NCBI GenBank assembly: GCA_947589095.1
Contig: CANQBX010000008.1
Span: 2,949 to 66,948, forward strand
Source: an uncultured Lachnospiraceae bacterium
GTDB taxonomy: Bacteria > Bacillota > Clostridia > Lachnospirales > Lachnospiraceae
DNA length: 64,000 bases
Direction: 5' to 3'
A model generated the notes under the pieces. The model saw nothing but the letters and a program-made list of their open reading frames with translations, ran no database searches and was not told the DNA's origin. Both the position numbers and the translations under genes were made by a program. Positions 47,123 through 64,000 of this stretch are shown here, piece after piece. The stretch's first letter is position 1; each line of letters starts with the position of its first letter.

Positions 47123-48694
47123 ATGATAGAGATACGACTGAATGACAATTCATATGAACAGGATATCCGGGAGCTTCTGATGGCGTTCTATCCCGGGGAG
47201 GGGTTCGTCTATGGAACGCTGGAGCCGAATCGCGGCGATGTGACGGATGAACGGCCGGCTGTGCCTGCGGTATCTTCTGCTATTCACCTGGCAGTGGAAG
47301 GTCTGGTAAGCGACGATCACCGTTCCTTCCGCCTGCGTCTGATCTTCGTGGGAGAGGCGGAATTTCATGTGATGCGCGCTCTTCCGCCGGAGCTTGAGAA
47401 GGAGGCCGCCCGCCGGGATGAGCCCATTTTCCTGGACTACGACGACCGCACCGACGCGAAGAACAAGATCAAGCGCCGTCTCTATGTGCTTCTGATGTTC
47501 GCCACCGGGAAGCTGCTTCCGTGGGGCGCGCTCACCGGCATCCGGCCGACGAAGATCGCCATGACGAAGCTTCAGGAAGGCGCGGGCGCGGACGAAATCG
47601 CCGCGTTCATGAAAGAGAATTATTACGCAAGCGACGAGAAGATCGCCTTAAGTATCGAGATTGCGCAGCGGGAGCGGGAGCTTCTGTCCGCCGTCGACTG
47701 CGCCGGCGGCTACAGCCTGTACGTCGGGATCCCGTTTTGCCCGACGACCTGCCTGTACTGTTCGTTCACGTCTTTCCCGATCGGCAAATGGGCGGGGAAG
47801 ACCGGCCTCTATCTGGACGCGCTGTTTAAGGAAATGGATTATGTGTCCCGGAAAATGAGCGGCCGCACGCTGACGACGGTCTATTTCGGCGGCGGAACGC
47901 CTACCTCTCTGTCCGCGGAGGATCTGGACCGCCTGTTTACGAAGCTGTGGGCGGTGTTCGACGTGGACCGCGCCAGGGAGTTCACGGTGGAAGCCGGACG
48001 TCCGGACAGCATTACCCGAGATAAACTCCGGGTGCTTAGGAAACACGGCGTCACGCGCATTTCTATCAACCCCCAGACCATGAACCAGGCGACGCTGGAC
48101 CTGATCGGCCGCCGCCACACGGTGGAGGACGTGAAAGAGAAATTTGCCATGGCCCGGGAAGAGGGCTTTGACAATATCAATATGGATCTGATCGTCGGAC
48201 TCCCCGAAGAGGATATGGAGGAGGTCCGTGCCACGATGGAGCAGATCAAAGAACTGGGCCCCGACAGCCTGACAGTCCATTCGCTGGCTATCAAGCGGGC
48301 TGCGCGGCTGAACACGATGAAGGAGGTCTACAAGGATCTGAAGATCGTGAACACCCAGGAGATCATCGATATGACCGCCCGTTATGCGCGGGAGATGGGG
48401 CTGGAGCCGTATTATCTCTACCGCCAGAAGAACATGGCCGGGAATTTCGAGAACGTGGGCTACGCCGCCCCCGGCAAGGCGTGTCTCTACAATATTCTGA
48501 TCATGGAAGAGCAGCAGACGATCGTGGGCTGCGGCGCGGGAACGACCACCAAGCGGGTGATCCCCGGCGAGAACCGGATCGAGCGGGCGGAGACGGTGAA
48601 GAATGTGGAGCATTATATCGCACGGGTGGACGAGATGATCGAGCGGAAGGAGAGGTTGTTCGCGCTGCCAGAGAAATCTTTAGAAAAGTATTGA
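47123..48694 (+). CDS. hemZ: HemZ-type radical SAM protein (coproporphyrinogen dehydrogenase-like)
   Basis: WGALTGIRPTK, YVGIPFCPTTCLYCSF (CxxxCxxC), YFGGGTPT, EAGRPDS, PYYLYRQKNM. Confidence 0.92.
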   Translation: MIEIRLNDNSYEQDIRELLMAFYPGEGFVYGTLEPNRGDVTDERPAVPAVSSAIHLAVEGLVSDDHRSFRLRLIFVGEAEFHVMRALPPELEKEAARRDEPIFLDYDDRTDAKNKIKRRLYVLLMFATGKLLPWGALTGIRPTKIAMTKLQEGAGADEIAAFMKENYYASDEKIALSIEIAQRERELLSAVDCAGGYSLYVGIPFCPTTCLYCSFTSFPIGKWAGKTGLYLDALFKEMDYVSRKMSGRTLTTVYFGGGTPTSLSAEDLDRLFTKLWAVFDVDRAREFTVEAGRPDSITRDKLRVLRKHGVTRISINPQTMNQATLDLIGRRHTVEDVKEKFAMAREEGFDNINMDLIVGLPEEDMEEVRATMEQIKELGPDSLTVHSLAIKRAARLNTMKEVYKDLKIVNTQEIIDMTARYAREMGLEPYYLYRQKNMAGNFENVGYAAPGKACLYNILIMEEQQTIVGCGAGTTTKRVIPGENRIERAETVKNVEHYIARVDEMIERKERLFALPEKSLEKY

Positions 48695-48719
48695 AATTTC
48701 TTGAAGAGTTGCATATAAT
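48691..48719 (+). promoter_or_regulatory. Promoter of antitoxin RNA 1: TTGAAA-N17-TATAAT
   Basis: -35 at 48691-48696 overlaps the hemZ stop codon; -10 at 48714-48719. Confidence 0.8.
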
Positions 48720-48725
48720 AATAAC

Positions 48726-48813
48726 AGGAACAACCACCTCTACAAGAGGTTGGCCAATTACTAAGTTGGAAATTCCGTCCTTGCACTGGTCAAAGTATAC
48801 AAGGGCGGTTTTT
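48726..48813 (+). ncRNA. Putative type I antitoxin sRNA 1 (~90 nt)
   Basis: Starts just after a consensus promoter; hairpin ACCTCT-aca-AGAGGT; terminator CCGTCCTTG/CAAGGGCGG plus TTTTT; antisense to the 3' UTR of peptide gene 1. Confidence 0.65.
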
Positions 48814-48829
48814 CTTTATGAGAAAAACG

Positions 48830-48913
48830 TTACTGACTTATCAAAACGATAAGGGTCAGCAATGCAAGAATGAACATCCCAAAGGCCATAAGGTCCTTAA
48901 AATCGAATTTCAT
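48830..48913 (-). CDS. Putative type I toxin peptide 1, MKFDFKDLMAFGMFILALLTLIVLISQ (27 aa)
   Basis: GGGAGGT SD 7 nt upstream; single hydrophobic helix; differs from copy 2 by three synonymous and one non-synonymous change. Confidence 0.85.
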   Translation of the reverse strand: MKFDFKDLMAFGMFILALLTLIVLISQ

Positions 48914-48982
48914 CTGCACCACCTCCCATCTATGTAAAATGGAAGGCCAACACCTTGCAGTGACATGATTGTTCCCATGAAT

Positions 48983-49011
48983 ATCTTATCATAGTTGGGA
49001 CGATATTTCAA
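48983..49011 (-). promoter_or_regulatory. Promoter of toxin mRNA 1: TTGAAA-N17-TAAGAT (extended TG)
   Basis: Minus-strand -35 at 49006-49011, -10 at 48983-48988. Confidence 0.75.
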
Positions 49012-49046
49012 CGCAAAAGAATATAAAAAGATTTTCAAGGTAAGTA

Positions 49047-49075
49047 TTGAAATTTCTTGAAGAGTTGCATATAAT
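49047..49075 (+). promoter_or_regulatory. Promoter of antitoxin RNA 2: TTGAAA-N17-TATAAT
   Basis: Identical to copy 1. Confidence 0.8.
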
Positions 49076-49081
49076 AATAGC

Positions 49082-49170
49082 AGGAACAACCACCTCTACA
49101 AGAGGTTGGCCTGTATTGAGAGATAGAAATTCCACCCTTTCAACAGCCAAAGTATACAAGGGTGGTTTTT
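49082..49170 (+). ncRNA. Putative type I antitoxin sRNA 2
   Basis: Same architecture as copy 1; terminator CCACCCTT/AAGGGTGG plus TTTTT shows compensatory changes relative to copy 1. Confidence 0.65.
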
Positions 49171-49184
49171 CTATACGAAAAACG

Positions 49185-49268
49185 TTACTGGCTTATCAAT
49201 ACGATAAGGGTCAGCAATGCAAGAATGAACATCCCGAAGGCCATAAGGTCCTCAAAATCGAATTTCAT
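49185..49268 (-). CDS. Putative type I toxin peptide 2, MKFDFEDLMAFGMFILALLTLIVLISQ (27 aa)
   Basis: Same SD and frame as copy 1; K6E difference. Confidence 0.85.
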   Translation of the reverse strand: MKFDFEDLMAFGMFILALLTLIVLISQ

Positions 49269-49337
49269 CTGCACCACCTCCCATCTATGTAGGATGGAAG
49301 GCCAACACCCTGCAGTGACATGGTTGTTCCCATAAAT

Positions 49338-49366
49338 ATCTTATCATAGTTGGGACGATATTTCAA
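49338..49366 (-). promoter_or_regulatory. Promoter of toxin mRNA 2: TTGAAA-N17-TAAGAT
   Basis: Identical to copy 1, shifted by 355 bp. Confidence 0.75.
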
Positions 49367-49395
49367 CGCTTTAATGAGATATCAATATTTCAATT

Positions 49396-49875
49396 CTACT
49401 CCAGGATAAGCTCCTTTTTGTCCGCCAGAAGTTCATTGATCCGCATCACATCCATATGATGCTCGATTCCGTATATAACGACCGCGTCCCGCGAAGATCT
49501 GGCATAGAGAATCCCTTCTCCTGCGCACTCCAGGCACCTCTGCGTCTCCCGCAGCGTAAGTCCGGCTGCGATGCACATCGCCAGGATCTTGTCGCGTCCC
49601 GGCTGCCGGGCGCCGCTTAGGATCTGGTAGCCGTAGGTGCGGTCTAGTTGCGCCGCACGGATGATATCAGACTTTTTCAGATCGTGGATCTCAAGAAAAT
49701 GCTGAAAGCAGCCGGCGAAATCCAAACTGGCGTCCGGTTTTGCATGTGTTTCAAGATAATTGTCCAGTTCCTTCTGTGAATGGGTGCTGGTCAGAATATG
49801 CAGCAGCTCGCCGGTGGTTTTGGTGTCTGCAGACTGCGGCACCCCGGCGTGGGCGTCATTTTCTTTCTTAAGCAT
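49396..49875 (-). CDS. XRE-like helix-turn-helix protein
   Basis: LKKSDIIRAAQLDRTYGYQILSGARQPGRDKIL HTH-like segment; AAGGAG RBS; TTGCGA-N17-TAGCAT promoter (49935-49907). Confidence 0.8.
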   Translation of the reverse strand: MLKKENDAHAGVPQSADTKTTGELLHILTSTHSQKELDNYLETHAKPDASLDFAGCFQHFLEIHDLKKSDIIRAAQLDRTYGYQILSGARQPGRDKILAMCIAAGLTLRETQRCLECAGEGILYARSSRDAVVIYGIEHHMDVMRINELLADKKELILE

Positions 49876-51978: not shown

Positions 51979-52018
51979 CCCTTTTGATTATATGCGGAAT
52001 TGGGGGAAATGATAAGGA

Positions 52019-52063
52019 ATCTATAAGTTAATGTTGACTTATAGATTTATATTGTTGTATACT
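52019..52063 (+). promoter_or_regulatory. Promoter TTGACT-N18-TATACT overlapped by a perfect 10-bp palindromic operator
   Basis: ATCTATAAGT (52019-52028) - 8 nt - ACTTATAGAT (52037-52046) covers the -35 box (52034-52039). Confidence 0.7.
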
Positions 52064-52091
52064 TTAAAAAATGAATATGGAGGAGAATGCT

Positions 52092-53597
52092 ATGAAGAAG
52101 ATGATATCTGTTGTATTAGCAGCTGCATTAGTCCTGAGCGTTGCAGCATGTGGTACGTCTGGAAACGTGCCGTCTCAGGAGAGCACAAGCGGTGTGTCAG
52201 AAGAAGTGTCTTCCTCGGAGAGTGAAAGCGCTGAAGCCGAGCAATTGCAGACGACAGTGGCCGAGCAGAGCGAAAACGATGATGTTGATCAACCGCAGAC
52301 TACGGTTTCCGAACAAAACGAAACCGCTAAGCCGGACACGCCGGCGAACGAAGATACTTTGCCGGAATTTCAAAAGGAAGCGACAATTACCGAAACCATT
52401 CTTTATGACGAGAACGATGTACGGATCATAGCTACGGATCTTACTTATAACAATTATGCCGCAGAATTGGCCGTGACAATTGAAAATAATTCAGACAAGG
52501 ATCTTGACTTTATAAGTAACTCGGCGGGTTATAGCTGCAATTCTGTCAACGGATATATGATTGAAGACGGTTATATGAACTGTGATGTTGCCGCAGGGAA
52601 AAAGGCGAAGGATACGATCTCGATCAGTTATAATACGCTGATGCTGTACGGAATTTTTGAAATTGCCGATCTGGAGGTTGGCTTTTCCATTACGGATGAT
52701 GATTATAACCGCATTTATACCGGATCATGCCAGATCATGACAAGCGCGGCCGATCAGCATGATTATCAAAAGGAGTATTATAAAGAAGCGATTGTCAGTG
52801 CTGCCGCACAGAATAATTTTGGCTATACGGTTCCTTATTTTTCAGACGAGCCGTTGTATGACCAGGATGGATTTGCAATTGTCTCCAGCACAATCATGAT
52901 GAATGGGGATGGGGAAGACATGCTGCTTCTGGAGGTTAAAAATACTACGGAGAAAACGGTTAATGCGGTTACGAGCGATATTTGTATTAATGGACTGGGC
53001 ATATATGGCTCGACTTGGTCTTCAGATACTATTAATCCCGGAAACACAGCGATCGTTGTCCTCGATCTGTCCAGACTGCTGAACAATGATTATCGCGATG
53101 TTTATGGCGTTCAGGATGTTGGAACGGTTGACCTGACCATGAAATTCGAGGATGTAGATGGGGAAGAAGTGGGATCCCCGGCGGAGATTACCGTAGAGAA
53201 TCCGAATGTCGAACCATCCTTCAGTAAGGAAGGCCAGGAGGTATATAATGCGAACGATATTCGGATCGTCATGAAGGATATCGTGGAAGACAGTTCGGAA
53301 TACAGTAAGGATATGTATATTCTGCTTCTGGCAGAGAATAACGGCACCGAACCGGTTACACTTCGCGGTGCATACGATTCCTTTTCTTTAAATGGGTATA
53401 TGATGAGTTTCTATATGAATCAAGTACCTATAAAGGGCGGAGATTCCGCAATGTTGGAGATCTATTTAATGGAATCTGATCTTGAGGAAAACTCGATTGC
53501 AGAGATTTCCGATATCACGCAGATGGAGATGGAGATCGAGATTATGCAGGAGTACAATACGATTGATACGGCGAAACTTGTTGTGGATTTCAATTGA
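52092..53597 (+). CDS. Large acidic lipoprotein with three repeated beta-sandwich-like modules
   Basis: Lipobox VAAC; GGAGGAG RBS; repeats (LYDENDVRII...IENNSDK / LYDQDGFAIV...VKNTTEK / VYNANDIRIV...AENNGTE). Confidence 0.85.
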   Translation: MKKMISVVLAAALVLSVAACGTSGNVPSQESTSGVSEEVSSSESESAEAEQLQTTVAEQSENDDVDQPQTTVSEQNETAKPDTPANEDTLPEFQKEATITETILYDENDVRIIATDLTYNNYAAELAVTIENNSDKDLDFISNSAGYSCNSVNGYMIEDGYMNCDVAAGKKAKDTISISYNTLMLYGIFEIADLEVGFSITDDDYNRIYTGSCQIMTSAADQHDYQKEYYKEAIVSAAAQNNFGYTVPYFSDEPLYDQDGFAIVSSTIMMNGDGEDMLLLEVKNTTEKTVNAVTSDICINGLGIYGSTWSSDTINPGNTAIVVLDLSRLLNNDYRDVYGVQDVGTVDLTMKFEDVDGEEVGSPAEITVENPNVEPSFSKEGQEVYNANDIRIVMKDIVEDSSEYSKDMYILLLAENNGTEPVTLRGAYDSFSLNGYMMSFYMNQVPIKGGDSAMLEIYLMESDLEENSIAEISDITQMEMEIEIMQEYNTIDTAKLVVDFN

Positions 53598-53662
53598 GGG
53601 GAGTAATTGTCAGGGCGTAGATTTGTTAGTTTGGGCATATCTGTCAATGAGATGTGTATTCT

Positions 53663-53702
53663 AAAAAAAGAGAGGTGGCTGTCAGACGGTCGCCTCTCTT
53701 TC
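53663..53702. terminator. Strong bidirectional terminator at the edge of the AT-rich block
   Basis: AAAAGAGAGGTGGCTGTC-A-GACGGTCGCCTCTCTTTT. Confidence 0.8.
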
Positions 53703-53826
53703 GAAGGTTAATAACATCATTCAGTAGCAGTGTGTCGCATAAGCAGGATAAATCATTTGTCAGTAGAGATTAAAAACGCAAACCAGATCAAATATATAAT
53801 TTGATACACATATCACGAGGTTAAAA

Positions 53827-54414
53827 ATGAAACTGATTAAATTTGATTGTAATAATTGTGGCGCTCAACTTGAAATGGATTTAGATAATTTGCAAGTGTA
53901 TTGCCCATATTGTGGACAGAAATTGCTTATTGATATTGATCAAGTAGATCACATACTAGTGGCACGAGAGGAAACAAAGCAAGCACAAGAAAAAACCAAA
54001 CGTTTTCAAATCGCGCAAGATTATAAAGATAAGAAAGATCGCAGAGATCATTGTTCTGACGCTTTCCGAACTGCCGGGATGTTCATTATTCTAATTTTTT
54101 GTTATGCGTATATATTTTTTATGGGCCATAACGAGAGAAAGAGTCATCAAGCAAATAATGATATTCAAATATCGGTATCTTCCGATGATCTAAAAGAAGA
54201 AGATATAGATAGTGTTGTCAGAATTCTTGAAAATTGTGGATTCAAGACTATTAACACAGTTAATGCGAAGGACTTGGTATTTGGCTTCTTGTCCAAAGAA
54301 AACGAAATCGACACTGTTGCTATCAATGGGGATAAAGAGTTTGACAAAGGCGACTGGTTCCCACAAGATGCAGTAGTTACCATTACTTACCATGGATTTC
54401 CTGACAAAGAATAA
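53827..54414 (+). CDS. Zinc-ribbon + TM + PASTA-like domain membrane protein
   Basis: CNNCGA...CPYCG; coiled segment; one TM; C-terminal LENCGFKTI...VAINGDKEFDKGDWFPQDAVVTITYH. Confidence 0.78.
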   Translation: MKLIKFDCNNCGAQLEMDLDNLQVYCPYCGQKLLIDIDQVDHILVAREETKQAQEKTKRFQIAQDYKDKKDRRDHCSDAFRTAGMFIILIFCYAYIFFMGHNERKSHQANNDIQISVSSDDLKEEDIDSVVRILENCGFKTINTVNAKDLVFGFLSKENEIDTVAINGDKEFDKGDWFPQDAVVTITYHGFPDKE

Positions 54415-54773
54415 TAAAGACGGCAAAATGTGTTGTCTTTATTTATCCCGAAGGACTTAAACGTGAAACTTAAATGAGGCAGGTAGTCAAAAAAGTGTAT
54501 CACAAGCAAGCTTTTCATAGGTGGTGTTTGCGGATGACATCAGTAGATATTGATAACAAAATCTGATGGTTAGTGATACTGTGGCAGCGCAGAATAAAAC
54601 AAATTTGGGGGATGAACGTCAGTCATGAATTGAAAATCAGTTTAGTCCATGGGACGGACGGCATAAAGAATTATGCGAGTTGTTTAGGCAAACTAATTTG
54701 ATAAATACGGGAAGTCTTTGTTGATATTCGATAAAATCAGCAATATGATAAACGCAGACTTAATTCTGTCAGA

Positions 54774-55961
54774 ATGACAAGAGAGGAAAAATATGCCATG
54801 AAAATAATGGGGAACGTACTTGTTATTGGAAATTCCGGCGTCGGTAAGTCAACTCTGATTAATGCGGTGCTAGGAGATAATCGTGCGGAGACAGGTTTTG
54901 GCGTGAAAGGAACAACAAACAAACTTTCTATTTATGAAAGCAAAGAATTGCCATTCCGCATTATTGATACGATAGGCTTTGAACCTTCGTGGCTCAAGGA
55001 AAGACAGGCAATCCGAGCGGTCAAAAAATGGTCAGCCGATAGCAGCAAGAAAGGGAAAGAGGATACGCAGATTAATGTGATATGGTTCTGCGTTGAAGGA
55101 ACTTCAAGCAAACTGTTTCCCAAGTCCATCAAGGATCTCTCGCGTGCTACCTCTATGTGGCCTACAGTACCGCTTATTGTGGTAATAACAAAATCATATT
55201 CCGTACCGGATCGCGAGGAGAATAAAAAGATGGTATATAGCGCGTTCGCCTCGCAGAAACGTTATGGAAAAAATCTACGAGAAGTGATACCTGTGGTGGC
55301 TGCGACATATACGCTTAATGAGCAAGCTTTTGCCGCGCCTGAAGGAATTCAGGAATTGATTACAGTGACCAACGATCTGCTTCCAGAGGGAGTTAAGGCT
55401 GCGCAGGATGATGTACATGCGTTTACTCTTAAGCGCAAGCAGACATTTGCACAAAGCATTGTCGGTACAACTGCGGCAGCGGGAGTTGTGGTGGGCGCTA
55501 TTCCGATTCCATTTTCGGATGCTGCCTTGCTGGGGCCGGTGGAAGTCGGAGAAGTGAACGCCCTGGCAAGAATCTATGGAGTTAATAAAAATGAATCCGC
55601 AAAAGAACTTTTGAATTCCATTATAGAAGTCGGAACAGTCGGAGCTGCAGCGAAAACTCTTATAAGTGCATTGAAGGCGATTCCAGGTCTGAATATCGGA
55701 GTAGCATTGTTGAATTCGATAATAGCCGGTTGTATTGTGGCGGCGTTGGGAGAAGCCAGTAATTATATTTTTATACAAATATATAATGGCGAAAAGTCTG
55801 CGGAGGATATTGACTGGGCAAAAAGGATTGTGGAGTCCAGACTGGCCAATCAGACACTTGAAAAAGTGATACAGATTCTTGATAAGATCAAAAAGGAGAA
55901 TCTTAATAAGGATGCCATTGTGAAACTAATCGTGTCGGTATTTTTCCAGAAAGCATCATAA
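54774..55961 (+). CDS. P-loop GTPase with a C-terminal YcjF/DUF697-like hydrophobic domain
   Basis: G1 GNSGVGKSTLIN, G3 IIDTIG, G4-like ITKS; AIPIPFSDA motif. The start may be ATG 54798. Confidence 0.85.
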   Translation: MTREEKYAMKIMGNVLVIGNSGVGKSTLINAVLGDNRAETGFGVKGTTNKLSIYESKELPFRIIDTIGFEPSWLKERQAIRAVKKWSADSSKKGKEDTQINVIWFCVEGTSSKLFPKSIKDLSRATSMWPTVPLIVVITKSYSVPDREENKKMVYSAFASQKRYGKNLREVIPVVAATYTLNEQAFAAPEGIQELITVTNDLLPEGVKAAQDDVHAFTLKRKQTFAQSIVGTTAAAGVVVGAIPIPFSDAALLGPVEVGEVNALARIYGVNKNESAKELLNSIIEVGTVGAAAKTLISALKAIPGLNIGVALLNSIIAGCIVAALGEASNYIFIQIYNGEKSAEDIDWAKRIVESRLANQTLEKVIQILDKIKKENLNKDAIVKLIVSVFFQKAS

Positions 55962-56079
55962 GGGGATAACGATTCATGACCCCCTTTATTCGATGACGCT
56001 GAACGAATTATTCACCGACCAGCTGTCATGGAAAAGAGCGTATACTCAGATAAATAAAAAGTACGGAACAAGGTATGAA

Positions 56080-56104
56080 TGAACCGCTCCCCGTCAAGTA
56101 GACA
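56080..56104 (-). mobile_element. Solo IS3-family (IS150-like) terminal inverted repeat; IS scar
   Basis: TGAACCGCTCCCCGTCAAGTAGACA resembles, from memory, IS3-family ends in Firmicutes. No partner repeat or transposase ORF was found. Confidence 0.45.
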
Positions 56105-56202
56105 ATCAAAAAAGTGTTGCCGGAACTTACTTGTCAACCGGAGTGCCTATGGCTGAGCCCTTAAGTATTCCTGCGCATTTCTTAACTAGATGAAAGGTTT
56201 AT

Positions 56203-56718
56203 TTATTTTAACTTTTCTTTTTCAGCATTTAATAGCTCAATATTAAGATTATTTTCGCTGGCGGTTTTATTAACCCACAGATTTAATGAGTCGATAGCCA
56301 GAGATACTTCGTCAAGTTTTTTACTGATGTAGGCGAAGTCTTTGATTTCATCATCTGTAATTTTTCCATCTCTCGCTATCTGGATCAAACGAATGGTTAA
56401 GGGATTGATCTCATTTAAACTGGCGATTGTTTCCAAAATGATATTGGACAATTCGGATACCTCAACTTCCGGAACGTAACGATCCCCAATTGTACATTTA
56501 TGGGAGCAATAGTAATTACAAAGGTCCGGTCTTTTATAGCAGTCAGCCATTTGAATGATGTCATACGGAGTTGGCTCCTGCAGTTCATATTCGATTTTTT
56601 CGATTCTGGAAGCAGATACCCCTGCCATCATTTCACTTGCTTTTTCGCGGGTAAGGCCCTGGGCTTCCCGACATAACTGATATATATTTTTGTTTTCTCT
56701 TGTTGATTGCTTTCCCAT
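56203..56718 (-). CDS. XRE-family HTH regulator with a C-terminal helical domain
   Basis: Start at MGKQSTRENKNIYQLCREAQGLTREKASE; SRIEKIEYE HTH. The upstream part of the track ORF overlaps another gene. Confidence 0.85.
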   Translation of the reverse strand: MGKQSTRENKNIYQLCREAQGLTREKASEMMAGVSASRIEKIEYELQEPTPYDIIQMADCYKRPDLCNYYCSHKCTIGDRYVPEVEVSELSNIILETIASLNEINPLTIRLIQIARDGKITDDEIKDFAYISKKLDEVSLAIDSLNLWVNKTASENNLNIELLNAEKEKLK

Positions 56719-56869
56719 TGATAGTACCCCTTTATCTCTCAAAACCCGAGAAATACATATGTTTAAGTCCTCGCTTTGAAGGTGTATTTCTGCCTTCGGT
56801 ACAATTATACTAAAAACAAAAAAAAACAGCAAGGATAAGTTGTAACCAGAGGAGATGATACATGCAAAG

Positions 56870-57010
56870 ATGGATGCAGAAAAAAGAATACAGTTAATCA
56901 AAACCATTGAAAAAATGGAAAGGAACCCGGCATTTAGTGAGAAACTGGGAATCCGGAATAAATCAGCATTGAGAACGGCGCAGGAGCGAAAGGAGAGGGA
57001 AAGATCGTGA
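56870..57010 (+). CDS. Small basic protein (46 aa), absent from the ORF track
   Basis: MDAEKRIQLIKTIEKMERNPAFSEKLGIRNKSALRTAQERKERERS; its TGA overlaps the GTG start of the exonuclease gene; alternative start at 56855. Confidence 0.55.
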   Translation: MDAEKRIQLIKTIEKMERNPAFSEKLGIRNKSALRTAQERKERERS

Positions 57011-57675
57011 AACACATTGTAATTGATCTGGAGATGAATACGTTGGACAAGAAGTTTAAGGATGAAAGAATAATTTGCGGAAGTGAGATTATCCAAATAG
57101 GAGCGGTGCTGCTGGATGAACAATATCAGGAGATCGGATCTTTTAATACGCTTGTAAAGCCTCAATATAATGAGCGGATTGAAAGGAAATTCGAGAGATT
57201 AACCGGCATTACGACAGAAATGGTTCAGAATGCCCCTGTTTTTTCAGAAGCAATCGGACAGTTCCTTTCCTGGTGCCGCAGCATAAGAGATGATATTCAA
57301 ATTTATCAGTGGAGTGAATCTGATTATGAACAAATCGCAAAGGAATTAGTATTAAAAAGAATCTGTTTGGCCCCAGAAGACAAAGAACTACTAAAGGGAT
57401 TTCAAGACTTTCAAAAAGAATACGGCGAGACACTTGGACTGTCTAAAGCGGTGTCGTTGAAAGATGCAGTAATGTATGCAGGAGTAGATTTCTCCGGGAA
57501 AGAACATGATGCTTTGGATGACGCGAAAAACACAGCTTCTTTATTGAGAATCGTTAGAATTCCGGAGCTCTGCAATATGGCACTCGAAAATGTGATCGAT
57601 GCATTCCAAACAAAGCCAATAGGAACCTCACTTGGCGATTTATTACATTTTGATGAGTTGGGCATACCGGCATAA
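57007..57675 (+). CDS. DEDDh 3'-5' exonuclease
   Basis: IDLEMN (ExoI), EIIQIGAV, WSESD (ExoII), HDALDDA (ExoIII). Confidence 0.92.
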   Translation: MKHIVIDLEMNTLDKKFKDERIICGSEIIQIGAVLLDEQYQEIGSFNTLVKPQYNERIERKFERLTGITTEMVQNAPVFSEAIGQFLSWCRSIRDDIQIYQWSESDYEQIAKELVLKRICLAPEDKELLKGFQDFQKEYGETLGLSKAVSLKDAVMYAGVDFSGKEHDALDDAKNTASLLRIVRIPELCNMALENVIDAFQTKPIGTSLGDLLHFDELGIPA

Positions 57676-57693
57676 AGAGGGGGAAGGAGAAAC

Positions 57694-57909
57694 GTGTTAT
57701 CACTGATATTTGCAATTTGCATGATATGGATATTTGGTAAATTATTAATTTTTGGGATCAAAGCCGCCTGGAGCATCTCGAAGTTCCTGGTAACGATTGT
57801 ATTGCTGCCTCTGGTGCTGATCGGGATGGTTATGGGCGGATTGATATACATAGCGTTTCTTATTTTAATCATAGTGGGAATTATAGCGCTGGTTCCATTC
57901 AAAGGGTAA
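57694..57909 (+). CDS. Small hydrophobic membrane protein (71 aa)
   Basis: Almost entirely hydrophobic; GGAAGGAG RBS; GTG start. Confidence 0.75.
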   Translation: MLSLIFAICMIWIFGKLLIFGIKAAWSISKFLVTIVLLPLVLIGMVMGGLIYIAFLILIIVGIIALVPFKG

Positions 57910-58184
57910 CCTCAGAATAAGGGGATTAAACGTTGCTAAGGTTTTTGTTTGGTCACTTAAATTTATACCCAAATTGACCAGGATTCCTTATTTTTTGAGA
58001 TTTTATAAAAGATGTTCACAAGTAATGAATTGCTGGTAAACAGAACTGTGGAAACTCAAGAAAGACACTACTTTATTTTCCTTTGTAACTATGGTACAAT
58101 TCTTTAGGAAAGTATCAGATTCAGGGCGGACAAAAAGAGCAGCCTATATAGAAACTAAAGCTGCTCTGAATGTGATTCTTTCCA

Positions 58185-58353
58185 ATTGTACCAAGCCGCG
58201 GAACTATTTTCTGATAATTCTTATATGGAATTCGTATTTATTCGAGCTCAATTCGAAGAATTGTCAGAAAATACATCGGTGAACTTGTTATGCACATAAT
58301 ATATCACAATGATGTAAAGTTGGCAAGCCGCCGCGCTAGCGGCTTGGTACAAT
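58185..58353 (+). other. Multi-stem palindromic element upstream of the toxin operon
   Basis: Outer 15-bp inverted repeat (58185-58199/58339-58353), inner 18-bp stem with one G-U pair (58205-58222/58256-58273) and an interrupted third stem (58272-58316). Confidence 0.6.
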
Positions 58354-58407
58354 ATTATATGTCTAATTGAATGAATAAAACAGTGCGGGAGTAGGGGGCA
58401 AATAATT

Positions 58408-60303
58408 ATGTTTCAATCTGCAAAGAGGTTTTCCATATTACTGGTTGTCGTAGCCGCGACACTATTCATACTGCCGATGAAAGCGTTTGCAGAGGATGGA
58501 AAGGTAGAACTCTCAGGTTTGATGTATGAGTTTGATAAAGACAATCACTATGATATTTTCGAAAGTGATTCTGTTTCGACGACAGACAGCGATTACACCT
58601 ACGGAACATTTTTTATCAATGGGGAAATAACTGCTACAAGCGAGAAATCTGGCATTCTATCTTACGAAGTTGGCAACGGAAACTTGGAATTTTACTACAA
58701 TTACGGAGATACCTTGCTCAATGTGGACGAAGACTCTTGGCATCTTGTAGATGACAAGAGCAAAAAAGTAGCCGGTAAGGAATTAGACTCTAACATTATG
58801 AAGGGTGCAATTATTTTGCAGACCTCTAAGGATCAAAAGAATTGGATAGATGAAAAAACTATTTGCAATGCATTCAGCGATGTCCCTATCCGAACAAGTT
58901 CAATTTACTCTACAACTGATGTACAATTGATTAATGGCTGTTATTACAGACTTGTAGTAGTATATGAACTCGCTAAGAAGATTGAAGACAGAAATTTCTT
59001 GTTCATTAACACTGACAAGTATGATTACAAAAAATGTGCCGAGGTTTATGAATTCTATGCTTGTGCCGATGGCGGCGAGGTTAATGCCATTGACCTTAGT
59101 CAGACATATAGCCTTGGATCGAGAGTAAAAGTAAAAAATTTTGATGGTTACTTCGGCGAAGAATTGATTGATAAAAATGACGTCCATTACGGTTGGGAAC
59201 TTGGCAACTTTTTTGTCAGCGGATATACAGATGAGGTGACAAGTTCCGATGGGAACATAGTATTTCTCAAGAATGTTGGAGATAAAGTTACTCTTTGGTT
59301 TAAGCTTGACCAAGATATCAATTGTTTGAATGGCAAGAAAAACTTATCTATTACCGCTGATACAGAAGGGTATGATCAGTACTTTGAAACTTCGAAAATG
59401 GATTTTGGACATGGTGTTCTGATTATTCGTTACACTGACCATAACAATGTAAAGGCAACACCTACTATCTACACAAATTATCTTGAAGCCAATGCAGTTG
59501 TCGGTGCAGATACCAAAGTCCAGTTGTTCGAGGAGGGTGATTATGAGGTTGCCCTTGATTACGAGGTTACAAAAAACGAGTTGATCGACAAAATCGGACA
59601 CTACCGCATATTCTTTAAATTCTCTGTTCGCAATGGTAACTGCATGGTTTATCCCTTTGATGTTCGGACGGGTAGTGAGCTAACAAGCAGTTCTTTGACC
59701 GAAAATGGGTTCCGTTTGGACTTGGCTAAGTCCAGATATTTGAAAATCAATATCAAAAGGGAAATACTGACAGACAGTGCTGATGGACTTATCGAAGATA
59801 CCCGTTTCAACGGTTCCACGAAGGATGGCGCTGAGTATACTGAAGAGGGCATTTATACTATCACTGTTAACAACGAATATACGGGACAGGTTACTACAAA
59901 GAAGATTTATGTTGGAACAAACAATATTCTTCGGGCCCACATGACTACTGGCCTGTCTATCCCAGAAATCAACGATCTTGTTGCAGAAGGAGCGACAATT
60001 TCTGAGGATGGAACAATTCAACCTGCGGCTGTGATTCCTGTTGAGGAGTCAGCAGGGCCGGAGCAGAAAGATTCGGATACATCTTCTGCTTCTGGTGTTG
60101 ATGTTCCGGTGAGCGGGGCAATAAATACTAATTCGGGAAATGCTGAATCAGACGAAAAGTTTTTCCCAATCGCTGCAATTGTTGGAGTAATTATCTGTAT
60201 CTTTGCTATAGTTGTTGTATTTGTCATAAAAAAGAAGGAAAAACAACCAGCTAAAGCTGATAATAGCTATCATGATGAAACTAAAGAGGATATAGAACAA
60301 TGA
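58408..60303 (+). CDS. Large secreted beta-rich protein with a C-terminal TM anchor
   Basis: Signal peptide ending MKAFA; acidic Ser-rich stalk; TM FFPIAAIVGVIICIFAIVVVFVI followed by KKKEK; no LPxTG. Confidence 0.85.
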   Translation: MFQSAKRFSILLVVVAATLFILPMKAFAEDGKVELSGLMYEFDKDNHYDIFESDSVSTTDSDYTYGTFFINGEITATSEKSGILSYEVGNGNLEFYYNYGDTLLNVDEDSWHLVDDKSKKVAGKELDSNIMKGAIILQTSKDQKNWIDEKTICNAFSDVPIRTSSIYSTTDVQLINGCYYRLVVVYELAKKIEDRNFLFINTDKYDYKKCAEVYEFYACADGGEVNAIDLSQTYSLGSRVKVKNFDGYFGEELIDKNDVHYGWELGNFFVSGYTDEVTSSDGNIVFLKNVGDKVTLWFKLDQDINCLNGKKNLSITADTEGYDQYFETSKMDFGHGVLIIRYTDHNNVKATPTIYTNYLEANAVVGADTKVQLFEEGDYEVALDYEVTKNELIDKIGHYRIFFKFSVRNGNCMVYPFDVRTGSELTSSSLTENGFRLDLAKSRYLKINIKREILTDSADGLIEDTRFNGSTKDGAEYTEEGIYTITVNNEYTGQVTTKKIYVGTNNILRAHMTTGLSIPEINDLVAEGATISEDGTIQPAAVIPVEESAGPEQKDSDTSSASGVDVPVSGAINTNSGNAESDEKFFPIAAIVGVIICIFAIVVVFVIKKKEKQPAKADNSYHDETKEDIEQ

Positions 60304-61535
60304 AAAAAATAATCGCGCTCTTTCTTAGCGTTATAATGGTTCTTACTGGTTGTGTGCAAACAACGCCACAGGAATCTACTTCCAGCGAGGGGAACAATGC
60401 TCAAGAAACAACAGAGCCTGTAGATCCTATTGAATGGGAAAATGTGGAACCACAATACACTTCACTGGATGATGAGGAACTTCTTGCCCATATTGAGGAC
60501 TTAGTTTACCATGATACAGTCGTCTCCCTCAACAGTAAGGAATATTTTGTTGAAAATGTATCTGCTATTTATATCTCAAAAGAATACCTTGATGAGGTGG
60601 CATTCAATTCCCAGTCAAATATTTACTTTGGCTATACGCTGGCAGAATTAGATGACATATTCCATGGCACAAAATACATCTTTGCATTAAGTGATAGCGG
60701 AACAACTACTGTTCAGGAACTTCAAGAGATTGAGGATACCTCAACCGAAACAATGCTTAAAAATGTAGCTATCGGGTCAGGTGTAATTCTGGTTTGTGTG
60801 ACGGTATCTGTCGTGACTGCAGGCACAGCAGCTCCGGCGGTGAGCATGATATTCGCAGCATCCGCAAAGACCGCAGCAACCTTTGCCATTTCATCTGCGG
60901 TATTCGGCGGTATCTCTGCCGGCATCGTAAGAGGCATTCAGACCGGAGACTTCGACGAAGCCATGAAAGCTGCTGCTATGGAGGCAACAGAAGGTTTCAA
61001 GTGGGGAGCTATCAGCGGAGCAGTTGTTGGTGGTAGTAGTGAAGCATTCCTGTTGAAATCTGCTACCCGAAATGGTCTGACCATGAATGAGGCGGCTATT
61101 ATACAAAAAGACTCCGGTCTTCCAGTAGATATTATCTCACAGATGCACAGCATAAAAGAATATGAAATATACAAAGATGCCGGATTAAAAACGATGGTGG
61201 TAGATGGCAGGACAGCCCTTGTCCAGCAAATTGATTTAAACTATGTCAGTCAACTTCCTGACGGAACAGAAGTAACGAATCTTGTGCGGATGCAAGATGG
61301 ATATCCGCCACTTGACCCAGTAACAGGAAAGGCATATGAATTGCACCATATGGGACAAAAAGATAATGGAGTACTTGCTATTTTGACACAGGAACAACAC
61401 CGGGGAAAAGGGAATATGAAAGTTTTGCATGATATATTGAATGATTCTGGAGTTGATCATGGAACAGAATGGAAAAAAACTGTTTCAAGTTTTTGGAAAT
61501 ATCTTGGAAATTATTATGCCAAGGGAGGCGTATAA
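60300..61535 (+). CDS. Lipoprotein with a C-terminal LHH (HNH/EndoVII-fold) nuclease toxin domain
   Basis: Lipobox LTGC; Gly/Ala-rich hydrophobic middle; TNLVRMQDGYPP...YELHHMGQK...LAILTQEQH...LH...FWK matches the LHH pattern; ATGA-coupled to the upstream gene. Confidence 0.88.
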   Translation: MKKIIALFLSVIMVLTGCVQTTPQESTSSEGNNAQETTEPVDPIEWENVEPQYTSLDDEELLAHIEDLVYHDTVVSLNSKEYFVENVSAIYISKEYLDEVAFNSQSNIYFGYTLAELDDIFHGTKYIFALSDSGTTTVQELQEIEDTSTETMLKNVAIGSGVILVCVTVSVVTAGTAAPAVSMIFAASAKTAATFAISSAVFGGISAGIVRGIQTGDFDEAMKAAAMEATEGFKWGAISGAVVGGSSEAFLLKSATRNGLTMNEAAIIQKDSGLPVDIISQMHSIKEYEIYKDAGLKTMVVDGRTALVQQIDLNYVSQLPDGTEVTNLVRMQDGYPPLDPVTGKAYELHHMGQKDNGVLAILTQEQHRGKGNMKVLHDILNDSGVDHGTEWKKTVSSFWKYLGNYYAKGGV

Positions 61536-61538
61536 AGA

Positions 61539-61925
61539 GTGAAATTTGTAGATATTATAAAGGAGATGCCGGATTACATTGGTTCAAATGGAAGAGATAA
61601 AAATACAATTGCTGAAGCAGAGAAAGAACTGGGCGTCACATTTGCGGGAGATTATCATGAATACCTAGAGAAGATTGGACTTGCATGTTTCGACGGCCAT
61701 GAGCTTACTGGTTTGACAAAAACATCTCGTCTGAATGTTGTCTCCGTAACCGTGGAGCAGCGAGAACAATTAGGTAATATTGATGCGTCGTGGTATGTCA
61801 TTGAGGAAGTGGGCATCGATGGTATTGTTATCTGGCAAAGTGCGGATGGCTCCATTTATGCAACTGCCCTAAATTCAAAAGCAAGGAAGATTGCAAACTC
61901 CCTTTCCGAGTACATTTCTAAGTAA
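61539..61925 (+). CDS. SMI1/KNR4 (SUKH) immunity protein
   Basis: IAEAEKELGVTFAGDYHEYLEKIG core motif; starts 3 nt after the toxin stop codon. Confidence 0.9.
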   Translation: MKFVDIIKEMPDYIGSNGRDKNTIAEAEKELGVTFAGDYHEYLEKIGLACFDGHELTGLTKTSRLNVVSVTVEQREQLGNIDASWYVIEEVGIDGIVIWQSADGSIYATALNSKARKIANSLSEYISK

Positions 61926-62083
61926 ACTAATTTTTACAATAGCCACAATAAATATCATTTACTGGTAAATAGCAAGTCGACTTATCATCTGCAGGTGAAT
62001 TCTTGCACGATGGGATAAACATACTGCAAGAATTAAGAATTTGTTATTGGGACAACTGGGCGATTTAGTAATGGAGGCAGACA

Positions 62084-62743
62084 ATGACATATAAAGATTT
62101 TGTTGAAGATACAATTTGTAATTTAAGCGAGCCGGTGTTTGAAGAGCTCAAACAGTTGCTGCTCGGAGAATACATATCATTCTCCATCATAGACCACGAG
62201 AATGTCACCAAAGATATTCTTGCCGAGAAGGTCTGTGATTACTTTAGTACACTTGAAATAAAAACAGGTAAGTCGTTCGATAAGCATATCGAATCCTATA
62301 TGAGTGGCTTGGATTCCATCGTGGGTCCGCATATTGCCAAAACGCCACAGGCTAAAAAGGGCGATAAGACACTTATTGTTGATTCCCGTCCCCGGTCAAG
62401 GAAGTACTACGATAAGGTTATTACTACCAAAGGGGTTAAAAATCCATCCCTGACTCAACTGGTTGATTATTCCAGGATTATGATGTGCCTGTATACTGCG
62501 GCAATCAAAAATAGAGATAACCCTATAGATAATTTCGATTATGCGTCAAAATGTCTTGCTCCGGTGAGCATCGTTGATGCCATGAAAAGCGAGGAGATTT
62601 CGATTGTGCATACTCGTTTAAAGAAGAAACGGTTTGACATGAAGGATCTATATAGCGATGACGTGTGCACGTTGATTTTGTCGATATTGATTCTTTTCTC
62701 AATTATCAACGGAAAAGTAGAAGGAGAAACCGATCATGAGTGA
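62084..62743 (+). CDS. Hypothetical protein (219 aa)
   Basis: GGAGG RBS; hydrophobic C-terminal segment; stop overlaps the next start. Confidence 0.75.
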   Translation: MTYKDFVEDTICNLSEPVFEELKQLLLGEYISFSIIDHENVTKDILAEKVCDYFSTLEIKTGKSFDKHIESYMSGLDSIVGPHIAKTPQAKKGDKTLIVDSRPRSRKYYDKVITTKGVKNPSLTQLVDYSRIMMCLYTAAIKNRDNPIDNFDYASKCLAPVSIVDAMKSEEISIVHTRLKKKRFDMKDLYSDDVCTLILSILILFSIINGKVEGETDHE

Positions 62744-63773
62744 TATGCTAGTTATAGAGACTTGGGAGCAACTAAAGGCATTCTTGAATGAAAAAGGCGT
62801 GATGGAAATTGTGGTCAGGAACAAGAACAAGCGGTTCAAAGCTTTTCAGAAGGTCATGATCAGCAATCTTCCGGAAACACAAGAAAAGGAGCTTGCTCAG
62901 AAAGTCATTGATATACTCAATAAGAATACGCAGATGAATGAGCGGAACCTGAATCTTCTGGGTAATGTGGCAAAACTGGAAGAAATCGGAATGCTATTGA
63001 ACGGCCTGAACCTATGTGCTACCTGTGCCGGTTTTGCAATTATGTACGCGAAGCTGGATGCCATGAGTTCAGAAATCAATCAACAACTATACCAACTCGA
63101 GAAAACAGTAAAGCAGACTCAGGATATCCAGAATGATTACGAGTTTAAAAAAGTGCTCGCGGAGCATACAGATATGCTGGATAGCCAGCGCAGACAGCAG
63201 CCTTATTCTGAAGGGAAAATGCGTGAACTTGTCGACCGAGAGTATAATGTCCTGATGCTTCTGATCAGTTCTTTCCGAAAGGATATCTCAGGAGATAAAA
63301 GAGCATTGATCTTTTCAATCTTTTCAATGCTTGCGATGTTCACGGCGTCACTGCGTTATTTTGACGAATTGTATTATTTCAATAATCGTCAAGTACTGGG
63401 AGAAAAGAACGCGTGGCATCTGTCCCACGAAAAATGGATGAGCGTATATGACGAGTTATCCTCTGAATGGTTTATCGAAAAGCTGCAGGATTATGGAATG
63501 TTCGATACAAAGTTATCAACTCTGGAGGTCGACATTTACTACATAAGTTTGATGGATCAGGTAGCTGACCTGAGAAGTGAAATAGAAGATAATCAGGCAT
63601 TGATTATTGCCCTGGGGGACGATGAGCTTTTCAGAAAAGTTAAAGAAATGAATGCAAAGGAAATCGCTGATTCCATTGAGTCAGCATACAGAGAAGCCGG
63701 CAGCGATTTGGCTGAGGAAACCGTCATAGCAGCGTATCAGAACGGAATGCAGCAGGCGGCAATGGCGGCGTGA
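62736..63773 (+). CDS. Hypothetical helical protein with a central hydrophobic segment and coiled coils
   Basis: AAGGAG RBS; LLNGLNLCATCAGFAIMYAKL followed by a heptad-like region. Confidence 0.78.
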   Translation: MSDMLVIETWEQLKAFLNEKGVMEIVVRNKNKRFKAFQKVMISNLPETQEKELAQKVIDILNKNTQMNERNLNLLGNVAKLEEIGMLLNGLNLCATCAGFAIMYAKLDAMSSEINQQLYQLEKTVKQTQDIQNDYEFKKVLAEHTDMLDSQRRQQPYSEGKMRELVDREYNVLMLLISSFRKDISGDKRALIFSIFSMLAMFTASLRYFDELYYFNNRQVLGEKNAWHLSHEKWMSVYDELSSEWFIEKLQDYGMFDTKLSTLEVDIYYISLMDQVADLRSEIEDNQALIIALGDDELFRKVKEMNAKEIADSIESAYREAGSDLAEETVIAAYQNGMQQAAMAA

Positions 63774-63784
63774 GGTGATCAATT

Positions 63785-64000
63785 ATGGATATTTCCGTCA
63801 AGAATGCTTTTGATAAGCTTATAAAAGCGTGTGAACGTATAGATTCTCTCCAGCAAAAACAAAAAAGAGGGTTATCCCTGAAAAGACTTCTCGCAGAGGA
63901 TATTCATGCCTTTATATGTCTGATCTCAAAATCCGGGGCAGAAGAAAGATATAGCTACTTTAATGAAGTATACCAAGGCGGAGCCTACCCGTCTTCTGAA
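63785..64000 (+). CDS. Hypothetical protein, truncated by the window end
   Basis: GAGGTG RBS; MDISVKNAFDKLIKACERIDSLQQ... is open for 72 codons to the edge. Confidence 0.7.
   Translation, partial: MDISVKNAFDKLIKACERIDSLQQKQKRGLSLKRLLAEDIHAFICLISKSGAEERYSYFNEVYQGGAYPSSE

Follow-up and report, generated by a model that had tools for sequence, protein, structure and literature searches.

The locus at positions 48686-49397 of the window (the whole stretch of 64,000 nucleotides analysed here, i.e. positions 2,949 to 66,948 of contig CANQBX010000008.1, assembly GCA_947589095.1, of an uncultured Lachnospiraceae bacterium) raises the question of whether its two short tandem repeats are toxin-antitoxin (TA) genes and, if so, of which kind. 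The reading that we favour, with a probability of roughly 80%, is that each unit is a type I TA module that belongs to the TxpA/Hol-Tox kind and has the build of bsrG/SR4, with a small peptide gene on one strand and a convergent small RNA (sRNA) gene on the other. The toxin family, the kind of TA system and the RNA logic are already known, and no new mechanism is involved; what is new is the clade to which the peptides belong, its breadth in gut Lachnospiraceae and its lack of annotation.

Organisation of the locus

The two units are direct repeats with a period of 355-357 nt, share 91-93% identity over an alignment of ~329-335 nt and are separated by a spacer of ~27 nt of unrelated sequence. 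The original prediction of two tandem units of ~329 bp is thereby borne out, as are the inward-facing promoters that it placed at both unit ends, recovered by a promoter scan of both strands, and the minus-strand open reading frame (ORF) with a GGGAGGT Shine-Dalgarno (SD) sequence, which lies 8 nt 5' of the ATG in each unit. The scan returned six promoter-like sites in the region vs. 2.1 +/- 1.6 in shuffles. On the sRNA side, the promoters read TTGAAA-17-TATAAT (plus strand, 11 of 12 matches to the consensus), while those on the toxin side read TTGAAA-17-TGnTAAGAT, with a TG extension (minus strand, both units), and a leader of 68 nt stands between promoter and ORF in each unit. The plus-strand terminated RNA of ~90 nt, which had been placed over the toxin 3' untranslated region (3'UTR), was confirmed at the sequence level, as a predicted RNA. 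The features are listed below, where T5 and T3 stand for the first and the last ~30 nt of the toxin mRNA, and R1 is the covariance model of the sRNA described further on.

48691..48719, plus strand: promoter of antitoxin sRNA-1 (TTGAAA-17-TATAAT), 11/12 in the scan; position kept in ~40 homologous units
48726..48817, plus strand: predicted antitoxin sRNA-1, ~90 nt (fold z = -4.0; R1 88.7 bits)
48734-48753, plus strand: predicted 5' stem-loop of sRNA-1 (from the fold), followed by a variable linker
48775-48783 / 48800-48808, plus strand: stems of the sRNA-1 terminator hairpin, followed by a U-run, UUUUUCUUU
48791-48796, plus strand: sRNA-1 terminator loop motif CAAAGU
48727..48755, minus strand: T3, 3'-terminal segment of toxin mRNA-1, GGCCAACCUCUUGUAGAGGUGGUUGUUCC, predicted to pair with the mRNA 5' end
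48830..48913, minus strand: toxin-1 ORF, 27 aa + stop, MKFDFKDLMAFGMFILALLTLIVLISQ (Hol_Tox 25.0 bits)
48921..48927, minus strand: toxin-1 SD, GGGAGGU, predicted to pair with the anti-SD CCUUCC at 48946-48941
48947..48976, minus strand: T5, 5' end of toxin mRNA-1, GGGAACAAUCAUGUCACUGCAAGGUGUUGG, predicted to pair with T3
48983..49011, minus strand: promoter of toxin-1 (TTGAAA-17-TGaTAAGAT), from the promoter scan
49047..49075, plus strand: promoter of antitoxin sRNA-2, from the promoter scan
49082..49173, plus strand: predicted antitoxin sRNA-2, terminator stem CCACCCUU/AAGGGUGG (R1 89.3 bits)
49185..49268, minus strand: toxin-2 ORF, MKFDFEDLMAFGMFILALLTLIVLISQ (Hol_Tox 28.6 bits)
49276..49331, minus strand: 5'UTR of toxin mRNA-2 (T5 49331-49302, anti-SD 49301-49296, SD 49282-49276)
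49338..49366, minus strand: promoter of toxin-2, from the promoter scan

Coding status and family of the peptides

Both window ORFs, on the minus strand, encode MKFDF(K/E)DLMAFGMFILALLTLIVLISQ (27 aa). They differ at four coding positions, three of which are synonymous, as had been claimed, K6E being the only nonsynonymous one. The purifying selection that this had suggested was recovered among 43 distinct homologous ORFs, in which the median ratio of nonsynonymous to synonymous substitution (dN/dS) is 0.11, the proportions of synonymous and nonsynonymous differences are 0.67 (pS) vs. 0.14 (pN), and entropy peaks at third codon positions. Nucleotide-level relatives were found in 53 of the 400 Lachnospiraceae genera sampled; the ORF of every relative found in these 53 genera contains the core FDFKDLMxFGMF(I/L)LALLTFI, and start codon, SD and stop codon are kept across them. 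Judged by these substitution patterns, the peptide ORF is a real coding gene.

Concerning its family, the original prediction held that no named one could be assigned. This did not stand, since both peptides pass the gathering cut-off (23.3 bits) of Pfam PF16935 (Hol_Tox), with 25.0 and 28.6 bits, and both ORFs also exceed it when the genome from which the window comes is scanned. Of 20 diverse relatives, 17 match the same profile with E <= 0.01, and the control genome of B. subtilis also contains a match; the sequence that we take to be that of B. subtilis TxpA scores 31.3 bits against it, a value of use as a lead only. TxpA-like sequences are present in Clostridiales, and the few annotated members of the TxpA family had been called 'holin-like toxins' (Fozo et al. 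2010, PMC2887945); the clostridial carrier named is C. bolteae (Soutourina 2019, PMC6563280). By profile match, the window peptides are members of PF16935 Hol_Tox, the TxpA family, and on comparison of their sequences those that share the above core form a distinct clade within TxpA/Hol-Tox.

The exact 27-aa and 30-aa peptides were not found among 15 billion proteins, the 30-aa relatives in the protein collection being named only 'uncharacterised' or 'hypothetical', and the peptide motif was found in no searchable paper.

The antisense RNA gene

The predicted sRNA-1 is made up of a 5' stem-loop, a GC-rich terminator hairpin and a U-run; its 3' end is 13 nt short of the toxin stop codon, so that the overlap is confined to the toxin 3'UTR. 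Its promoter is kept among homologues: a -35/-10 pair with a spacing of 16-18 nt stands at the same position in ~40 units, where the flanking sequence diverges. The consensus across these units is TTGnnn-17-(TG)nTATAAT/TATATT, with a frequent extended -10 (TGnTATATT), and the -10 ends 6-14 nt before a conserved GGAACAACC. The terminator is kept as well. In an alignment of 33 units, 92.8% of its helix is paired, with compensatory changes at four of the eight pairs, and units 1 and 2 of the window themselves differ by a compensatory G-C to A-U exchange in the stem. G.U and A.C combinations are about equally frequent in this helix (4 vs. 5), the pattern expected of a terminator helix used on both strands. 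Its loop motif is nearly invariant, reading ACUUUG in the toxin sense and CAAAGU in the sRNA.

Covariance model R1 was built from 36 sRNAs and run on 61 IMG/VR loci that had been retrieved by the peptide motif alone. In 56 of the 61, R1 gave a strong match (56-92 bits) just past the 3' end of the peptide gene and on the other strand; the five loci without a match include some that are truncated right after the ORF. In this independent IMG/VR set, the sRNA structure is 98% paired, with compensatory changes at 11 of 16 pairs, and R1 matches also occur in four families of the order. Promoter, terminator and co-occurrence with the peptide gene together argue strongly that the antisense sRNA gene is conserved. 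At the level of sequence, then, the convergent 3'-overlapping layout of TxpA/RatA type that had been proposed for the locus is supported by the purifying selection on the peptide, the conserved promoter and terminator, and the fixed geometry in which the two genes co-occur.

Between sRNA-1 and sRNA-2 (48755-48800 vs. 49111-49157), the linker, the terminator stem and the loop flanks differ, and the 5' stem-loop is identical. Cross-recognition between the two window units seems possible, since both toxin mRNAs carry the same 29-nt 3' segment.

Folding of the toxin mRNA

From its predicted start to its U-rich tail, the toxin mRNA has a fold z of -6.5 in unit 1 and -6.6 in unit 2. In the predicted fold of both units the SD pairs with an upstream CCUUCC, and T5 pairs with T3 in a long closing helix; T3 taken by itself forms a hairpin followed by the U-rich tail and is terminator-like in the scan. 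Across the 33 aligned units, the outer T5:T3 helix is 93.8% paired and shows double changes at five of its 14 pairs, one position being G-C in 17 units and A-U in 14. G.U combinations outnumber A.C ones by 74 to 3, an excess which argues that the closing helix forms in the toxin-sense RNA. The mean T5:T3 duplex energy is -39.6 kcal/mol for cognate vs. -32.2 kcal/mol for non-cognate arms (0 of 10000 permutations), and 37 independent loci on viral contigs gave the same result (-39.8 vs. -34.3 kcal/mol, 0 of 10000). Even indels in the closing helix are compensated, GGACACCG going with CGGUGUCC and GGAAACAA with UUGUUUCC.

Across 29 loci, the mean unpaired probability of the SD does not exceed 0.16 and is low in all predicted states; the toxin mRNA as made is predicted to be nearly untranslatable. 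When the region covered by the sRNA was barred from pairing, the calculated opening energy of the start region (-15 to +4) rose from 14.4 to 16.7 kcal/mol, an increase seen in 27 of 32 loci, and the direction of this predicted effect matches that of bsrG/SR4. The sRNA 5' stem-loop, being the complement of T3, resembles T5, so that there must be competition for T3 between the sRNA and the 5' end of the mRNA. A direct contact between sRNA and SD is possible but weakly supported: in most loci the sRNA 5' ACCACCUC/ACCGCCC could pair with the SD, but the pairing is just slightly better than in shuffles (mean z -1.5).

Proposed mechanism

In bsrG mRNA, helix P1 joins nt 1-35 with nt 232-262 and the SD is held in a short stem; when SR4 binds the 3' end, the 5' nucleotides are released and the SD stem grows longer, besides RNase III decay (PMC3834814). 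The window units would work along similar lines. The minus strand would give an mRNA of ~250 nt for the 27-aa, single-helix membrane peptide, and the near-consensus promoter on the plus strand an sRNA of ~90 nt whose sequence is the full complement of the final ~90 nt of that mRNA. Fresh toxin mRNA would be kept silent by the locking of its SD by CCUUCC and by the closing of its 5' ~30 nt on its 3' ~30 nt. Pairing with the sRNA probably begins at the shared bidirectional terminator with its conserved loop, as in SR4/bsrG, and the duplex would then spread to full length and be cut by RNase III. Its formation would also release the mRNA 5' end, which could refold in such a way that SD sequestration is tightened. 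Toxicity of the peptide, transcription of both RNAs, cleavage by RNase III and the order of pairing are what the precedent of the family would lead one to expect.

A further proposal is put forward tentatively, and on balance we doubt it. The antitoxin 5' stem-loop might mimic the 5' end of the toxin mRNA, the three co-varying elements constituting a conserved allosteric switch by which the sRNA, once bound to the 3' end, resets the fold of the ribosome-binding site, and orphan or toxin-less sRNAs might serve in trans, as a common pool of antitoxin on which copies in chromosomes, plasmids and prophages of gut Lachnospiraceae could draw. As for the latter part, most copies in the genome of origin share an identical 29-nt segment, and such sRNAs could therefore act in trans.

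Copies of the module

The genome of origin (4.1 Mb, 192 contigs) contains five intact units, two toxin-deleted units with an intact sRNA, and one orphan sRNA. In the two decayed units, C19:14169-14336 (sRNA 87.3 bits) and C140:604-843 (81.7 bits), the toxin promoter and the N-terminal part of the peptide are deleted. Loss of the toxin with retention of the sRNA fits a harmful peptide. The orphan sRNA (C140:5206-5302, R1 89.3 bits) is preceded by a promoter of its own, TTGCAC-17-TATATT, and faces no peptide ORF; its 5' stem-loop, CCGCCCACAAGGUGGG, is of another clade than that of the window units.

On a further contig (C96:3082-3265), a peptide closer to canonical Hol_Tox, MDSYETLSLLFLGGTFLIALLAYIDRTNKR (34.8 bits), stands on the same RNA chassis, with a 5'-3' helix, an SD hairpin and a convergent R1-like sRNA (50.8 bits), and so ties the window clade to the wider Hol_Tox family. 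In total, 13 matches to PF16935 were counted in the genome, further small ORFs lying on C22, C109, C60, C133, C4, C32, C38 and C126, with cores that include YSDLVQFSIFIVALVSL and YADLFAFVIMLCAVVTLVI; this number suggests that the genome carries several type I toxin-like families.

Outside this genome, the module is also found on plasmids of Enterocloster bolteae, and tandem pairs occur again; one such pair, MKHFDFKDLMAFGMFILALLTFVFTYIR and MRHFDFKDMMSFGMFILALLTFIYLICH, is carried by the mobilizable E. bolteae plasmid pCbo51 (NZ_CP053230.1; L056 2560-3220), where the module region is without annotated feature in RefSeq.

Weight of the evidence and alternative explanations

Several points weigh against a type I TA module. 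The Hol_Tox scores are just 2-5 bits over the cut-off, and the profile is a hydrophobic one of 34 positions. A charged C-terminal tail is a common trait of type I toxins, and the window peptide is without one. Searched over 48300-49800, Rfam gave no relevant match at E <= 10, be it to RatA, Fst RNAII or other antitoxins. At the RNA level, the sRNA is predicted to affect the SD modestly, by about +2 kcal/mol, and the high predicted opening energy of the start region, ~14 kcal/mol, implies that some additional activation step must exist. Trimming of the 3' end, as in hok, was considered as the activator of the SD and rejected, since removal of T3 lowers the predicted SD unpaired probability from 0.16 to 0.02. 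Finally, YhzE-2 has an antisense RNA and showed no toxicity (PMC2887945).

This last case also speaks for a first alternative, in which the gene product is a small membrane protein devoid of toxicity, for instance a ComI-like modulator of a membrane complex, merely tuned by its cis-antisense RNA, the TA architecture coming without addiction or killing. No NCBIfam model covers the window peptide, its weak likeness to ComI and PepG1 staying below threshold; the former, seen in 18 of 20 members, would suit such a protein (the latter is seen in 11 of 20), as would the position of most copies in the genome of origin among housekeeping genes. We nevertheless regard this explanation as unlikely, because the window peptide passes the cut-off of a family that contains a proven toxin, TxpA, the sRNA is retained in toxin-decayed copies, translation repressed so heavily, and in several layers, is a typical trait of toxic products, and carriage on plasmids and prophages resembles that of known type I TA systems.

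That carriage leads to a second alternative, according to which the module is phage-derived cargo for lysis or superinfection (a holin-like or abortive-infection peptide), with a role in phage biology instead of TA-type maintenance, and the chromosomal copies are remnants. The 61 relatives on IMG/VR viral contigs favour it, and so do the positions of some of them inside phage genomes (L077 2830-3390; L095 2840-3300; L062, L069 and L101 ~3000-3200), where the module stands between phrog_706 (tail-chaperone-like) and the tape-measure gene or is flanked by tail-fibre and endolysin genes, in one instance with an integrase nearby. However, neither protein nor DNA comparison gave a match in 50,697 deposited phage genomes, inspection of the flanks revealed no integrase or phage genes near the window locus or the other copies in the genome of origin, and control by an antisense RNA fits a TA module, not a holin that times lysis. 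We hold this alternative to be very improbable; it would moreover be compatible with a type I TA function, bsrG and txpA being prophage-borne too.

A dispersed non-coding repeat with ORF and promoters arisen by chance, as the multicopy occurrence in intergenic regions might suggest, is effectively refuted by the median dN/dS and codon-position entropy; the Pfam match above cut-off and the start codon, SD and stop codon kept across the 53 genera also speak against it.

Comparison with known type I systems

A type I TA module thus retained as the preferred reading, its closest counterparts include bsrG/SR4 of the B. subtilis SPbeta prophage. The two share a convergent sRNA that is antisense to the 3' part of the mRNA for the toxin, a 5'-3' closing helix (covarying here) and an SD held in a stem, these being predictions from sequence for the window. 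They differ in that the bsrG toxin has 38 aa vs. 27 aa, and the window sRNA lies wholly within the 3'UTR; also, the shared bidirectional terminator of the window units is inside the closing helix, the 3' arm of which itself resembles an mRNA terminator, whereas in bsrG the terminator comes after P1.

With txpA/RatA of the B. subtilis skin element and its E. faecalis relative EF3263, the window units share the convergent 3'-overlapping layout and the PF16935 family (for TxpA, presumably). The antitoxin of txpA/RatA, ~90-110 nt, is similar in length to the window sRNA. Unlike RatA, the window sRNA matches no Rfam family, and the window homologues are unnamed in public annotation. Toxins of the EF3263 type are about 27-33 aa long, and TxpA-family toxins with 3'-overlapping sRNAs have been experimentally validated (PMC2887945).

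The sprG/SprF system of S. aureus resembles the window in being TxpA-related, present in multiple copies per genome and supplied with a cis-antisense RNA at the 3' end, but the PepG1 score of the window peptide is far under the NCBIfam cut-off (17 vs. 70 bits). SprG1 encodes two peptides from one frame.

As in hok/Sok and aapA1/IsoA1, long-distance 5'-3' pairing would hold the full-length toxin mRNA of the window inert. There, the target of the antisense RNA is the 5' region of the 3'-processed mRNA, whereas the window sRNA would bind the 3' end, and loss of the 3' segment from the window mRNA is predicted not to free the SD. Concerning the Fst family, no match was found in Pfam or NCBIfam for the window peptides. 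The Fst/RNAII (par) pattern consists of an overlap limited to the terminator and of 5' direct repeats, whereas the complementarity of the window sRNA extends over all of the distal 3'UTR, and at their 5' ends sRNA and toxin mRNA are alike, not complementary.

In public annotation the peptide goes uncalled or is named 'hypothetical', and Rfam has no family for the sRNA. The practical value of these results is one of annotation, in the form of a new Rfam or NCBIfam model, with a bearing also on how plasmids and prophages are maintained in the gut microbiota and possibly on defence against phages there. The comparative data also provide a covariation-backed RNA model of a bsrG/SR4-like switch, testable in cultivable commensals.

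Genomic context

Flanking the window locus are genes for a radical-SAM protein, an unknown protein of 159 aa and a Ser/Thr kinase. Its nearest relative in another species (L023) has just one unit, bordered by the same genes, which indicates that the tandem pair of the window is a local duplication. The 159-aa ORF (49396-49875, minus strand), for which Pfam gave no match, stops at a distance of 27 nt from the toxin-2 promoter and is also kept beside the single unit of L023. In the sole other genome of the same genus that was searched (G168), no unit was matched at the DNA level; presence of the family therefore varies even within the genus.

The copies in the genome of origin are flanked by ordinary genes (radical SAM, Ser/Thr kinase, MoxR, TrpE, ECF sigma, GH88 and ABC transporters), those outside the window likewise lying between housekeeping genes. 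The local context gives no support to the idea that the locus stabilises the adjacent accessory region, as the GC content falls from 55-60% to about 40% only from ~52 kb on (52000-64000), two ordinary genes beyond the TA pair. Among the proteins encoded in this low-GC block are a GTPase, a zinc-ribbon protein and an unknown one of 508 aa.

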